A stretch of DNA of 38,742 nt from the sequence record KJ832078; one strand, written 5' to 3'. The stretch is from Enterobacteria phage Sf101. Position 1 is the stretch's first letter. The number at the start of each line of letters is the position of its first letter. The notes beneath the pieces are model-generated. The model saw nothing but the letters and a program-made list of their open reading frames with translations. It ran no database searches and had not been told where the DNA came from. Below, one piece after another: positions 11,531-25,335 of the stretch. The translations under genes were made by a program, and so were the position numbers.

Positions 11531-14266
11531 ATGGCTAATTACCGTGATTTGTTAGAGCAGGCTGGCGCACGTTACGGTGTGCCAGAAGGGTTGATGACTG
11601 CACTGGGTGCCAAGGAGTCTTCTTACAACCCTGCCGCAGTAAGCTCCGCCGGGGCTGTAGGATTGACTCAGGTCATGCCTGGGACATGGCGTGATATGGG
11701 TTATACCGATGAGCAAATGCAAAACCCCGAATATCAGGCTGACGCTGGCGCGCGCTATCTGGCAAAGATGTACCAGCAGTTTGGTAACTGGCGTGATGCT
11801 CTTCAGGCTTATCACGACGGTCCCGGCAACGTTATGAAGGCAAAGCGTGGTGAATATACGCCAGGACCTGAAGGCCGCGGTTACGTTGATGATCGCTTTG
11901 CTCAATGGGCGGGTGACCCGGTGACAGACTCAACAGTCGAACAGCGCGCCACCTCTGCAAAGGTACATCCTCAGCAAGACCCTAACAACCCGTTTGCACA
12001 ACTGGAAGCACAGTCATCCGAACAAGTATCGGCATCAGGTGTGCAGTCAGACCCAAATAATCCATTTGCTCAGATTGAGCAGCAGGCAGCCAGTCAGCAG
12101 CCACCTCAACCCGTAAGTTCTGTCGCACCGAAACCTGTTCAGCAACAAACAGTTAATCAGGCCAATAATGAACCAGCACGTGAAGAACCATCATTGATGC
12201 AACAAGCTGGCGATTGGCTCACAGGTGGTCAAAGTGCAGGGCAAATTGCAGAGCAGGCTGGTCGTGGTCTGGTAAACATACCATTTGACGTATTGCAGGG
12301 TGGCGCAAGTCTGATTAATGCAATCAGCCAGGGGCTTGGTGGCCCCAAGGTTTTGGACGATGTCTATCGTCCAGTAGATCGACCGACAGACCCTTATGCG
12401 CAAGCTGGAGAGTCAATAGGCGGTTATCTTGTTCCTGGAGCAGGAGTAGCTGGAAACATGGTCATTGGTTCTCTCGCTGACGCGGCGAATCAACGGGGTG
12501 ATTTTGCCGAAAATGCCGCTATTAATGCCGGACTTAACATTGCTACGCATGGCCTGATAAATGGCGTTACCCGTGGTGTTCGTGGTGCATCAAATATAAT
12601 TAGTGGCAATAAAACATCTGCACAGAGAGCGACCACTGCGGCAACAGAAACATCACCATTCTCCGGTGATGCCGCTGCAGCAACAAATCCTGCGGTTCAT
12701 GCCGCAGAGGCAAGAGTAGCACAAGGTGTACCAATGACGCCTGCGACGAGGAACCCAGAGGAAGTCGTTCGCACAGTAGCAGCACAAAAAAGGCCAAATC
12801 TCGCTTCATCGCTTGATGAACTAGATATCAATCCTCAGGCTGAAGTTCTGGAGTCTGCTGAAAGGCTTAATGTTGATTCATTACTCCCTTCACACTTTTC
12901 CGGGAACGAGCAATACAAGGCAGTTGAGCAAGCAATCAAGTCCCGTGCGGGTTCTGCTCTACAGGTGCAGGAAAATGAAGCAATCAGGCAGCTAGCACAG
13001 GGCGCGGGGGAGATAATTGATCGCGTTTCCGGTGCAAAAGATGCTCTTGGTATGAGCGACAAGTTTATTGATACGGTCAATGGAAGAATGTCTGCGCTGA
13101 TGAAACGAAGCGACCAGCTTTATCGCAATGTTGAAAAGGCGATGCCTGCAGGTGCAAAAATTGATGCGCCATCAACAAGGTCAATGCTCAAACAGGTGGC
13201 AGAAGATCTTGGCGGGATGAAAAACCTTGACCCTATTGAAAAGAGAGTCTTTCGGGCAGTTAATCCAGGCAAGAACGGCGCATTAACTTATGCAAATCTC
13301 AATAAGCAACGACGACTTGTTGGTGATGCACTTCATAAGAATTCTGGACCATATAAAGATGCTGATCGCGCTGCTTTATCGAGGCTTTACGGTTCGCTCA
13401 CCGATGATCAAAAGGCGGCGCTGTCAGAGACAAATGCATTACGTGATTTTGAAGTTGCTCAGAGGCTTGTTCAGATGCGAAAAAGCATGGAAGAGCAAAT
13501 GATTAATCTAACTGGCAGAACGCTGAACGGTGATGTTTCTCGCAAAGCAACTACAGCACTACAGGCAATGTCGAAAGGCGATGCCAAAGGATTTCGTGAA
13601 TTGATGCAAAACACGCCGTCCAGGAAGCTAAGAACCGAGCTACTGGGAACAGGTCTTCGGGATATGCTTTCGAACGGAAAACGTGGCGCTGATTTTAATC
13701 CTGCAGGGTTTGCTGACTGGTATCAAAACATGTTAGCAAACGGGCAGATGCGCAATCTTGCCCGACATTTACCAAAAGAGACTATGTCAGGTCTGAACGA
13801 TGTATATAAGGTCGCAAAGGCTATCAAAGATGCAAAATCTTACGAGATAACTACAGGAAGACTAAACGAGTTCGTCAAACGGTTTAATCGCGTCACTGCG
13901 GCAAATGAATTTGTTGCTAACCATGCCCAACGCATTGGCACTGCGGTTGGTTCAACTGTGTCAGGACCGTTCAGTGCAGTAGGTGCTGTTGCTGGGTCAG
14001 AAATTGGGGCAAAAGTCGCCAGCAAAATCAGGGCGATGGGCGGCGCTGAATCAATTGAATCTGCAGAAAAGCTAATTAGCTCACCAGAATTCCAGAAAGC
14101 AGCAAGGCTGGCAGTAAAACAAGCACCAGAAAGCATCGTTGATACAACTGTAAGACGCTCTTCTGCTTGGCGCTCGTTTTACAACTCACTTCCAGAATCA
14201 GATAAGAAAACCATATCAAGGCTAGGCATCATGTACTGGATGAACAGTGATGATAACCAGAAGTAA
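11531..14266 (+). CDS. Ejection protein, gp16-like, with N-terminal lytic transglycosylase (SLT) domain
   Basis: 911 aa; N-terminal ~110 aa carry SLT signature ([28 protein letters not shown]... AYHDGPGN); then Q/P-rich linker with repeated DPNNPFAQ(L/I)E; last large gene before the tailspike. Confidence 0.7.
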
Positions 14267-14283: not shown

Positions 14284-14544
14284 TTAGCTGCTGTCTTTTT
14301 TATATAGCTCCTTGAGCGTATCAAAGACAATTTTCTTGACCATATCAGATTGTTGTTCTGCCATACGCTCTGCATCGTCAATGTAAACTGATGCAGAGCT
14401 TTGTTTAGCCAATGATTCTTCAATCGCTGCAATTATCTCTGAGTTCAGCGACCTGTTATTCATCTTCGCGAGCTGTTTAATTTTCGCGTGGAGTTCATGC
14501 GGAAGTCTCAAGTGAAACTGCGCCTCGTCGTATTTGCTGTACAT
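14284..14544 (-). CDS. mnt: Mnt-like ribbon-helix-helix repressor (immI-type)
   Basis: ORF-track 14284..14577; start taken at internal ATG 14544. C-terminus DAERMAEQQSDMVKKIVFDTLKELYKK closely matches P22 Mnt (DAERLADEQSELVKKMVFDTLKDLYKK) as recalled. Confidence 0.8.
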   Translation of the reverse strand: MYSKYDEAQFHLRLPHELHAKIKQLAKMNNRSLNSEIIAAIEESLAKQSSASVYIDDAERMAEQQSDMVKKIVFDTLKELYKKDSS

Positions 14545-14665
14545 CCTTGATGCCTCACCAGTTGGGTGGAATGGCATCGTAACCTACTGGATAAATACTC
14601 AATAGTACCATTTCGGTATGCAATCACATCATGGTTGCATCATATCATTCGTCTGGAGCAATGAA

Positions 14666-16408
14666 ATGTCAGATATCACCGCAAATATTGTGGTAAGCAT
14701 GCCTTCGCAACTCTTCACTATGGCGCGTTCTTTTAAAGCCGTAGCCAATGGCAAAATTTATATCGGAAAAATTGACACTGACCCGGTAAATCCTGAAAAC
14801 CAGATTCAGGTTTATGTAGAGAATGAAGACGGATCTCACGTCCCTGTTTCTCAGCCAATTGTTATCAATGCTGCCGGATATCCTGTGTACAACGGGCAGA
14901 TTGCCAAATTTGTAACTGAGCAAGGCCATTCAATGGCTGTATATGATGCGTATGGTTCGCAGCAGTTCTATTTTCAGAATGTGCTGAAGTACGATCCTGA
15001 TCAGTTAAAGCAGTTACTTCAATCAGATGAAGGAGCTGCTCACATTGGCACTAATAGCGGCAAAAATCTCCAAGAGGAGCTATTTGCAATAAAAAATCTC
15101 CAAGAGGAGCTATTTGCAATAAAAAATGAAATATATCAAGACCCGCTTACATCGTGGCCTTTCGGTGGAACATTAAAAATAAAGCAAGGGGTGTACGATA
15201 TCGCGTCACCATTAGTGCTTGATTACGGCAACTATGACGACAGACTTCCCGGTTCTCCTGGTGTTCGTGCCCATTACGAAGGCGAGAACATGGCGGAAAC
15301 CATCTTTAATTGTCAGGGTACGGATTTTAACCTCAAGATGCTAGGGGATACCGTTGGGGGGACCCAACGGGTGCATGCATACGATTATCTCGGGAATATT
15401 ACGCTTAAAGGCTCCGCAACATCTTACGGTCTTCTCGTAACCAAGAAAGCATATACCAAGTTAGAGAACATAGTATCTTACGGGCATGACAACGGCGAAG
15501 GTTTACGTACAGATTCTGTATTAACTTCTGAATTGGATAATGTGTACCTACAGTCAAATCGTATTGGGTGGCGAGTGCTTAATTCTGATGGTGGGTCAGA
15601 ACTTAATGCAATTACTGTCAACAGATTAACCGCAAGCCAGAATACACAATGGGGTATTCTTGGTGAGAGATGGGGTGCAGGGACTACCATCAATAGCCTT
15701 ACATGTGAGGGTAACGGCACGCAGGGTGACTCTGACACTGGCGGCATGATTATTAACGTGAACGGTCTTAATGGATCATGTGCTTTGGTACTTAATAACC
15801 CATATTTTGAGGCCAACGCCGGCGGTTCTGACCTTGCCATTAATAACACAGGCACACGTCCAGTAACAGTAGTTATCAACGGTGGAAACTTCCATCGGGG
15901 TAGTAGTACAGCGTACACTACCTACAACATTTTAGCTAGTTCTACTGGTGGAGGGAAATTAACAGTCATTCTCAACGGGACGACATTCCAGAGTGCTGGT
16001 AGTTACGTGCCAGACGCATCGCGGCCATACTGGCGAGAGTTAGGTAATGTTGAGTTTATAGATATAGGTTGCACGTTCATGGAGGCAACAAGTAAAGCAA
16101 TATCCATTTCCTCTGGCAGCATTCCACGTTCTGGAAGAATTAACGCCAATGGTAGTGTAGGCATCGCCCCGGGCGTGTCCTCGGTAAATGTGGTAGGTAC
16201 AGGTGTTTATGATGTAACTTTTTCTAACCCGCTCGCAGTAGCCGCGGATTGTTATGTGGTGCAGATAACGCCAATATCAGCACCCAATTCTGTGAGTTGT
16301 GATGTTACTTATATTGGCGTAGATACATTTAGGGTGACCCTGCGCGATACGCTTAGCGGAGCAGGAATCTCCAGTTCGTTTGCATTTAGCATTACCAGAC
16401 TACTATAA
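14666..16408 (+). CDS. Tailspike protein (P22 gp9-type head-binding domain + divergent receptor-binding domain)
   Basis: N-terminus [11 protein letters not shown]...[23 protein letters not shown]...NVLKYDPDQ matches the conserved P22/Sf6/HK620 head-binding domain; GGAG RBS 9 nt before ATG 14666 (the ORF-track start 14618 is probably an upstream extension); C-terminal ~450 aa do not match any tailspike I recognise. Confidence 0.9.
15062..15121 (+). repeat. Perfect 30-bp tandem duplication inside tailspike (in frame, [10 protein letters not shown] x2)
   Basis: aaaaatctccaagaggagctatttgcaata occurs twice head-to-tail (15062-15091, 15092-15121); a partial third copy (aaaaat) follows. Confidence 0.95.
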
Positions 16409-17634: not shown

Positions 17635-18097
17635 GCTCTATTACGCAATTAAAATTTCTCCAAGTATACTGACTTTTAGTTAATGATAATATAGTTATGT
17701 GTAACTGATGAAACAAAACGGAGACACACCAAGCTTTGCACTGGATTGCAAGGCTTTGCGCTCTTCGATAGTGGTTAAGGTGGGTCACTCCACCTTTTCA
17801 TCAATCCAGTCCGCCAACCACTGCATCATTTCTCTGCGCTTAACGTAGCGGATGCCTCACTATCACATAGTGATGGTTCATTACTGCTTTGTAGAATGGA
17901 CAGAGAACTGAGGATAAAAAGATATCCCAAAACCCCAAAAGCTCATCTTTAGGATTTGCAGAAAGGTAGTCATGAACAGATACCTGCGCATGAAGACGGA
18001 ACTAGTCCAGATGTGATATTTGTGGTGATCGCATACATCATCAACGATGCTCGTTATGGTGAGTTTGATGACTACCCACTGAGGTGAAAATTGTGTT

Positions 18098-18119
18098 GTG
18101 TACCAAATTGTGTACCAAA
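18098..18119 (+). repeat. Candidate integrase arm-type sites (2 x GTGTACCAAA)
   Basis: Tandem ttGTGTACCAAAttGTGTACCAAAtt at 18098-18107 and 18110-18119. Confidence 0.45.
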
Positions 18120-18347
18120 TTAAAATCATAAACCATGAAACCCTTACTCATGGCAGTCTCAGGCTGGGTGCGCGTAATCGTGAAAGAGGAAGGTAGGTTG
18201 TTTATCTGTGCCTGTCATTGTCTAGCATTGTCCACTGTAGTTAATTAACTGTCTGTTATAACTCGAAAAACAACCCTTTTTTAACCTGAGTATGTCTACG
18301 AACGTCAAATATAGTTGTTTACTGTGCGCTGTTGTCCATGTGATATT

Positions 18348-24232: not shown

Positions 24233-25201
24233 TTAGTAGGTTATTTTTGTTGCGAATACTTCGCCTTTTACGATGGCTGTTATGATATTTTTAGCAACAT
24301 CTTCTGATGCACCAACCTTGATAAGGTCAGCAAGTATTTTGTTATTTACTTCTTTCCGGTGAGCTTTATCCTTTGCTCTGCGCTCTTCTTCGTCCTTGAT
24401 TCTTTTTTCTTCTGCTATTCTGGCTTGCTCTTTTGCTTCAGCATCGCGACGGATTTGTTCAGCCTCCTCCTGTGCTTTACGGCGTTCTGCTTCAATTGCC
24501 GCATGCTTTTCTCTTTCAGCTCGTTCTGCTGCCTCTTTTGCTTCGCGCTGTGCTCGTTGCTCGGCTTCAATGCGTTCACGCTCTGCACGTTCCGCTGCGG
24601 CCTTAGCTTCTGCTTCTCGCCTTGCTGCTGCTTCAATTTCGGCTTTTGCCTTTGCTTCGGCTTCTGCTCTGGCTTTCTCTTCAGCTTCTCTTTTTAAGCG
24701 TTCTTCATGCTCTCGCTTTTCCTGCTCCGCTTTGAGTCTTGCCTCTTCTCTTTGGCGGTCAAATTCGCGATCCATCAAAATAGCTATTTCATGGTCAGAC
24801 TCAATTTGCTTTGCGAGAGCTTCAGCTGCTGCCTTAGCTTCTTCTTCGGCTTTAATCCGCGCCTGTTCTTCCTCATAATCAGTAAGAGGCTGGCGTGCCT
24901 TGGCTTTCAGCTCATCAAGGCGATCACGCACTGTCTTGCGGTTGGCATCAATTAGCTTTGGAATTTCCTTCAGTTCAGCAACAAGGTCTTTGCCAAGACC
25001 ATCGAGATATGTTTTCGTCTGCGCAACTTTATACGCCAGAGAAGCGATCTCCTTTCTGCCCTTTGCCGTTGTGATATCAGGCACAAAGGACATAACTTCA
25101 CGTTCAACCTTTTGGAGAATTTCTTCAATCTGGTCAGCAGACTGAAATACAATCATTGCATTTGCTTTTTCAATAACAACTAAATCTGTTACTTCACTCA
25201 T
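24233..25201 (-). CDS. Hypothetical protein with long E/R/A/K-rich coiled-coil region
   Basis: ORF-track 24233..25255; start taken at ATG 25201 with GGAGG RBS. Central ~150 aa are low-complexity (REEARLKAEQEKREHEERLKREAEEKARAEAEAKAKAE...). Confidence 0.6.
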   Translation of the reverse strand: MSEVTDLVVIEKANAMIVFQSADQIEEILQKVEREVMSFVPDITTAKGRKEIASLAYKVAQTKTYLDGLGKDLVAELKEIPKLIDANRKTVRDRLDELKAKARQPLTDYEEEQARIKAEEEAKAAAEALAKQIESDHEIAILMDREFDRQREEARLKAEQEKREHEERLKREAEEKARAEAEAKAKAEIEAAARREAEAKAAAERAERERIEAEQRAQREAKEAAERAEREKHAAIEAERRKAQEEAEQIRRDAEAKEQARIAEEKRIKDEEERRAKDKAHRKEVNNKILADLIKVGASEDVAKNIITAIVKGEVFATKITY

Positions 25202-25335
25202 ATATCCTCCATCAAAAAAATCGCCCTCACACTGGAGGGCAAAGAAGATTTCCAATAATCAGAACAAGTCGGCTCCTGTTTAGTTACGAGCGACATTGCT
25301 CCGTGTATTCACTCGTTGGAATGAATACACAGTGC

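Follow-up and report, generated by a model that had tools for sequence, protein, structure and literature searches.

Tandem duplication of a ten-residue unit in the tailspike neck of phage Sf101: a natural length variant that probably arose by slippage

Within its tailspike gene, Enterobacteria phage Sf101 (sequence record KJ832078) carries two perfect copies of a 30-nt unit, located between the part of the protein that binds the particle and the part that binds the receptor. Is this repeat a real feature of the phage or a fault of assembly, how did it arise, and does the additional length alter the tailspike? These questions were examined for the whole 38,742-nt stretch of DNA (i.e. the window) and for homologous genes and proteins. 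The publication describing the Sf101 genome reported a conserved N-terminus and a divergent C-terminus for the tailspike and left the duplication unmentioned (PMC4159516), and a search of the literature turned up nothing relevant on tandem duplication in the neck of tailspikes.

The tailspike gene occupies positions 14666..16408 (+ strand) and encodes 580 aa plus a stop codon (AII27839.1 / YP_009153089.1). The start codon was placed at 14666 (i.e. MSDITAN), where homologues begin as well; an upstream ATG at 14618 (MQSHHGC...), which gives the longest ORF, was rejected as the homologues all begin with MSDITAN. Residues 1-113 (14666..15004, +) form the head-binding, or particle-binding, domain, which matched Pfam PF09008 (E = 2.6e-65) with full coverage of the profile. 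Matches in the PDB were obtained for residues 1-116 with Sf6 gp14 (7sg7) and for residues 1 to about 114 with P22 tailspike chains. The conserved interdomain motif (K)YDPDQ is present after this domain at residues 105-114 and is succeeded by the end of the YDPDQ linker and a 16-residue segment (15005..15061, +; residues 114-132). An L..S..G...IG motif in this 114-132 segment is common to Sf11 gp13, and short helices were predicted by AF2 at residues 111-118 and 123-126. Downstream of the repeat lies the rest of the neck helix, KNEIYQ (15122..15139, +; residues 153-158), which ends at the equivalent of the proposed Sf11 gp13 hinge. The receptor-binding body (15140..16405, +) is built from a right-handed beta-helix plus a C-terminal beta-sandwich; pLDDT values for the body in the AF2 model were mostly 85-98, and Foldseek matches were obtained with the Sf6, P22, LKA1, CBA120 and other tailspikes. 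Residues 235, 391 and 412 of the Sf101 tailspike are unlike those of every closest relative (where RGHAYDY, LTINNTG and HRVSS are found) and could be either true strain differences or leftover Ion Torrent errors.

The gene is flanked by a Mnt/Arc-type repressor gene upstream and an oacB-type acyltransferase gene downstream, both on the - strand. The repressor-like ORF (14284-14577, -) encodes 97 aa here, as compared to 86 aa annotated in relatives. A gp16-like ejection protein is encoded at 11531-14266 (+); it is 911 aa long, has an SLT lytic transglycosylase domain at its N-terminus (E = 3.3e-25) and contains an internal repeat that has diverged (DPNNPFAQ[LI]E x 2). The proteins encoded at this position in related prophages are 665-797 aa in length, and only some have the SLT domain.

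Positions 15062-15121 consist of two identical 30-nt units (AAAAATCTCCAAGAGGAGCTATTTGCAATA), which are followed directly by the hexamer AAAAAT (15122-15127), the same hexamer that opens each unit. Copy 1 (15062..15091, +; residues 133-142) and copy 2 (15092..15121, +; residues 143-152) lie head to tail with zero intervening nucleotides. Tandem Repeats Finder (TRF) delimited the repeat as 15062-15127 (period 30, 2.2 copies, 100% matches) with a score of 132, the highest of all tandem repeats in the window; sequence and TRF hence agree with an earlier, sequence-only reading, in which two identical 30-bp units plus 6 nt of a third had been described. The period-30 run extends over 36 nt and is the longest perfect tandem match in the window, the runner-up real run being 14 nt; in dinucleotide-preserving shuffles (100 replicates), the longest tandem run had a mean of 11.2 and a maximum of 15 nt. 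As the first base of the repeat is that of codon 133 of the tailspike ORF, a 10-residue unit is encoded twice in frame, starting 19 residues past the PF09008 domain, which bears out the placement by that reading of an in-frame ten-residue duplication between the head-binding and receptor-binding domains. Neither promoter-like nor terminator-like sites were found at the repeat and the overlapping ORFs on either strand were trivial (21-22 codons); a regulatory or other-strand coding role was rejected on these grounds.

Another perfect tandem repeat (TTGTGTACCAAA, 2.2 copies) was observed at 18096-18121, where the DNA that follows the oacB acyltransferase gene downstream is non-coding; it may be a protein-binding site (e.g. 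for an integrase or excisionase). A degenerate GCTTCT hexamer repeat (TRF, 24606-24689) is explained by the long E/A/K/R-rich segment, probably a single alpha-helix, of a 340-aa protein encoded at 24233-25255 (-).

Whole-gene matches were found in the E. coli G3/10 and PapM-32-1 prophages, whose genes are shorter by exactly 30 nt. Alignment to these genes produced one clean 30-nt gap with identical flanks and, bar this unit, Sf101 was 100% identical to both from upstream of the start codon to gene nucleotide 516 (window position 15211). Divergence downstream of this mosaic boundary (15212, +) was 13-17%, so that the repeat is situated approximately 85 nt inside the conserved side. The same gap was present in alignments with S. 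flexneri loci L006 and L009 and with Sf11; it is drawn here at copy 2 and either copy may be the added one. Complete E. coli genomes yielded only two full-length homologues, both of them single-copy. In protein searches, homologues were mostly of 570-571 residues with one unit, and a single unit was found in about 70 other homologues, including distant ones on three other types of N-terminal anchor. The spacing from G-x-N-[VL]-Q to YQDPL was nearly constant in about 70 sequences, with protein P0068 as the exception. Copy numbers among all retrieved homologues were one or two only and a three-copy form was not seen. As about 70 homologues are without the extra unit, the two-copy state is derived and limited to an Sf101-like sub-clade.

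Sf11 gp13 has 70-71% protein identity to Sf101 and a full-length phmmer E-value of 7.6e-234. This homology spans the unit (SNVQEALDDINNTIYQDPL), which places the unit in the first helix of the receptor-binding module, outside the YDPDQ linker of the P22 type. The proposal of the sequence-only reading that the linker was lengthened needs amending on this point: a connecting helix appears to be extended, and the conserved YDPDQ linker is not the part concerned. The receptor-binding body was itself observed on at least four N-terminal anchors (i.e. P22-type head-binding, PF18668 as in siphophage Sf11, PF18668 plus PF03906, and an unannotated type) in a survey of proteins P0033-P0071 and of the Sf11 locus (L003:3522-5279); judged from these sequences, one body on several anchors is a clear instance of modules being exchanged between phages of different morphotypes.

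Two units were present in six more distinct proteins of 580-581 residues, which belong to the closest cluster and derive from other S. flexneri or E. coli assemblies. These proteins are P0121 (10 contigs, at least four accessions), P0125, P0130 (WP_089551079.1), P0132, P0134 and P0001. Half of them (P0121, P0130 and P0134) are of the EE type, with two E units as in Sf101, and the other half (P0001, P0125 and P0132) are of the ED type, in which the second unit is KNLQDELFAI. The DNA of an ED allele was obtained from S. flexneri GCA_052230475.1 and from Logan SRR35079743, which have identical genes and may be one isolate; copy 2 differs by a change of GAG to GAT. Searches with the duplication-specific junction CTATTTGCAATAAAAAATCTCCAAGA gave zero matches in viral contigs, species-representative genomes and metagenome contigs, and the exact Sf101 tailspike protein was not found on any other contig in the contig index with either start. 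Comparison with related tailspike genes, which had been suggested as a check, thus revealed that the duplication recurs in six other distinct proteins.

Differences in copy number were detected between closely similar alleles. P0121 (two units) and P0131 (one unit) have zero other amino-acid differences, which upholds the suggestion that the repeat is a copy-number-variable element, with one or two copies among near-identical alleles. Other two-copy proteins are also close to single-copy forms, with P0132 being 3 residues away from P0122 and P0123 and P0130 being 4 residues away from P0124 and P0127. One- and two-copy alleles were interleaved in neighbour-joining trees built from the sequence on either side of the unit. 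Flanking haplotypes were reshuffled (e.g. P0125 combines the N-part of P0121 with the C-part of P0132) and the duplicated allele was found on several different N- and C-terminal haplotypes. On these comparisons, copy number is clearly labile or mobile.

The perfect identity of the two copies had been read as evidence of either a very recent duplication or an assembly artefact. Sf101 and a two-copy allele at locus L004 differ at 2.2% of sites outside the repeat, and at this divergence approximately 0.66 differences are expected between 30-nt copies, with a probability of about 0.5 of finding none. Perfect identity is consequently no proof of recency and is compatible with an older event, so that the choice between very recent and artefactual falls away. 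Deletion by slippage across 30-36 nt of perfect tandem homology is far commoner than duplication between 6-nt repeats. For this reason, a single gain followed by several losses and by recombination would be the most economical history of the unit.

The likely effect of the additional unit on the neck was assessed with AF2 monomer models. A helix was predicted for residues 135-156 in Sf101, as compared to 135-146 in the single-copy protein P0004, with pLDDT values of about 70 for the P0004 helix and of <50 for residues 128-151 of Sf101, and high confidence for the beta-helix body in both models. The ten extra residues are thus predicted to take an amphipathic helix in the neck, of about 12 residues, to a length of about 22, and ten helical residues would add roughly 15 A. 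Hydrophobic residues of the single-copy helix (L135, L139, I142 and I146) are spaced 4,3,4 in clean d-a-d-a heptads. The spacing in the two-copy helix is 4,3,3,4,3,4, which fits no single heptad register; this stammer pattern, with its 3-3 break, follows from 10 being 7 + 3. If the supercoil does not adjust, the angular register would shift by roughly -50 to -80 degrees.

The extended helix adjoins a joint for which flexibility has been proposed. In Sf11 gp13, a flexible hinge was proposed at about residue 162 (i.e. the Y of IYQDPL), just after the neck helix (PMC12724387), and this residue was mapped onto Sf101 by a HMMER alignment to 9occ. In the Sf11 gp13 cryo-EM structure (9occ), residues 4-59 alone were built and the neck and body were taken from prediction (PMC12724387); 9occ was rejected as a solved structure of a homologous body, since only residues 4-59 are modelled. 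In the Sf6 tail structure, too, a hinge is reported to separate residues 1-123 from the body.

Sf101 has been induced and, after plaque purification, propagated; it is able to infect serotypes Y, 1a, 1b and 3b, with an O-antigen-dependent host range (PMC4159516). As Sf101 forms plaques, its two-copy tailspike must assemble and work. In published models of P22-like phages, the particle descends as its tailspikes cleave O-antigen, up to the point at which the membrane is sensed by the needle; on such models, the length of the neck could matter in principle. The extra residues are most likely a near-neutral spacer change, tolerated at a joint that is flexible already. That helix length hardly varies across the family argues for constraint, and a ten-residue insertion may hence not be neutral.

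A reading in which the extra length is an adaptive adjustment is rather unlikely. Under this reading, the extra residues move or re-orient the body relative to the tail hub and needle, and would alter the descent through the O-antigen layer or the transmission of the binding signal on particular hosts. In its favour, helix length is almost fixed in about 70 homologues with four anchor types, the two-copy allele persists on several haplotypes and in two host species, the unit adjoins the proposed hinge, and tailspike geometry relative to the needle is central to particle opening in the published models. However, the same host species have both one- and two-copy forms on backgrounds that are identical or nearly so, as would be expected for a neutral or weakly selected variant, and only about seven distinct two-copy sequences were found, with no three-copy form. 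An extension of this idea, which we regard as a doubtful speculation, is that the neck unit serves as a 'shim' of reversible length, such that populations toggle between one and two copies (with gain being rare and loss frequent) and hedge their bets through the reach or hinge geometry of the body relative to the tail needle. If true, such a shim would suit hosts whose O-antigens are not alike in chain length or modification, and the long-standing notion of a tailspike linker that passes on the binding signal would be directly testable, as alleles with identical backgrounds exist.

A near-neutral spacer remains the preferred reading of the extra residues, and its existence in two lengths has practical value. 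The polymorphism of one or two copies at the joint between particle binding and receptor binding is a natural experiment on the effects of neck length and register on adsorption and on the triggering of DNA release in P22-like phages. For builders of chimeric tailspikes, the junction is one that tolerates a helical insertion of ten residues.

How the second unit was gained is suggested by the sequence at its edges. The arrangement AAAAAT-N24-AAAAAT was present in all single-copy genes examined at the DNA level (i.e. G3/10, PapM-32-1, L006 and L009). The ancestral single-copy gene would accordingly have had a 24-nt core between two AAAAAT hexamers, and slipped-strand mispairing between these hexamers during replication, a step deduced from the microhomology, would have doubled the 30-nt interval. 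The apparent '6 nt of a third copy' is explained by the prior existence of AAAAAT at the right end; these nucleotides are indeed present in Sf101, and they are better described as an ancestral right-hand microhomology (15122..15127, +) than as the start of another unit, being found also in the single-copy DNAs examined. The unit can form a hairpin (GCAAA...CTCC-AAGA-GGAG...TTTGC; -6.1 kcal/mol, z = -2.4), and this weak evidence suggests that pausing or misalignment could be favoured. The two-copy allele would then have spread through the Sf101-like prophages of S. flexneri and E. coli and been recombined onto differing head-binding and receptor-binding haplotypes, with some lineages gaining one substitution in copy 2. 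Reversion to one copy has probably occurred more than once, given that 30-36 nt of tandem homology would be a much better substrate for slippage than 6 nt.

A truncated tailspike remnant of 333 aa, flanked by IS elements, was found in S. flexneri CP026810.1 (L009:4001-5002), and its protein cluster has 260 members. The remnant has a single D-type unit with CTC...GAT, the same as copy 2 of the ED alleles. As the source of the D unit in copy 2, the common D-type allele of L006, which is single-copy, was rejected because it has CTT in place of CTC. Conversion by or recombination with the L009 remnant explains copy 2 of the ED alleles as well as a point mutation does.

These observations bear on an improbable alternative origin, in which the duplication itself was produced by unequal homologous recombination or gene conversion between tailspike alleles (e.g. 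those of an incoming E-type phage and a resident D-type remnant in S. flexneri). The ED alleles do combine an E-type copy 1 with a D-type copy 2 that is CTC...GAT exactly as in the L009 unit, and the reshuffled haplotypes are a sign of recombination around the unit. Against this origin, Sf101 is of the EE type, with identical copies and with flanks 100% identical to single-copy E alleles, and the homology available for an out-of-register exchange would still be the 6-nt AAAAAT alone. The ED alleles are accounted for equally well by one G-to-T substitution or by a short conversion that followed the duplication. Slippage between the hexamers thus stands as the favoured source of the second copy.

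That the unit is a programmed, hypervariable repeat of the contingency type, switching tailspike properties at high frequency, is hardly tenable: copy number does vary between otherwise identical proteins, but there are only one or two copies and no array, the 30-nt unit is in frame such that on/off switching is impossible and both states give full-length proteins, and no dedicated machinery or regulatory signal was found at the site.

It is just as improbable that Sf101 truly has one unit and that the assembler stuttered, even though its genome was put together as six contigs from Ion Torrent reads (about 125 nt) and finished by Sanger sequencing (PMC4159516) and the exact protein is absent from other contigs, as such reads are long enough to span a repeat of 66 nt, the EE segment and the ED segment each occur in three further proteins from unrelated assemblies, and stutter, which cannot produce a diverged copy, is ruled out for the ED alleles. 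The possibility of an assembly artefact that had been raised is therefore contradicted by six distinct proteins from independent assemblies that share the duplication, three of them with a diverged copy 2. On the strength of these sequence comparisons, the duplication in Sf101 is taken to be natural variation in length, as opposed to a fault of assembly; the question over the quality of the published genome at this site is settled in favour of a real duplication, the support for the Sf101 record itself being indirect and coming from the occurrence of this allele in other assemblies. The account as a whole, namely a genuine polymorphic duplication that originated by slippage, spread among related prophages, produced a longer neck helix and acts as a tolerated, near-neutral spacer, is one that we consider probable.

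Comparison with known systems places the Sf101 protein among the P22-like tailspikes (i.e. P22 gp9, Sf6 gp14 and HK620 gp9), with which it shares the PF09008 domain, the YDPDQ linker and a beta-helix body. Sf6 has 99% DNA identity to Sf101 over the head-binding part and likewise has a flexible joint between the N-terminal domain and the body. In contrast, the Sf101 body is a different module, with no detectable sequence match to the bodies of Sf6 and P22, and within the joint there is a ten-residue segment of helix in duplicate, which is unreported for P22 gp9, Sf6 gp14 and HK620 gp9. Sf11 gp13 (PDB 9occ; PMC12724387) has the same receptor-binding module as Sf101, including the neck helix with SNVQEALDDINNTIYQDPL and the proposed hinge, but this siphophage protein carries only one unit, and its N-terminal anchor, which binds the distal tail protein, is helical and of another type.

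In the form of its repeat, Sf101 resembles the slipped-strand tandem duplications of other bacterial and phage genes: the copies are spacerless and head to tail, a short direct repeat is present at both ends of the unit, and one- and two-copy states coexist in close relatives, with the slippage event itself being deduced here. The 4,3,3,4,3,4 spacing is similarly akin to the heptad discontinuities (i.e. stammers) in trimeric coiled coils of viral fibres and adhesins, whereas the Sf101 helix is short (about 12-22 residues) and is known here from monomer models. The Sf101 duplication is hence not a new kind of system but an ordinary type of mutation in a well-known protein family.
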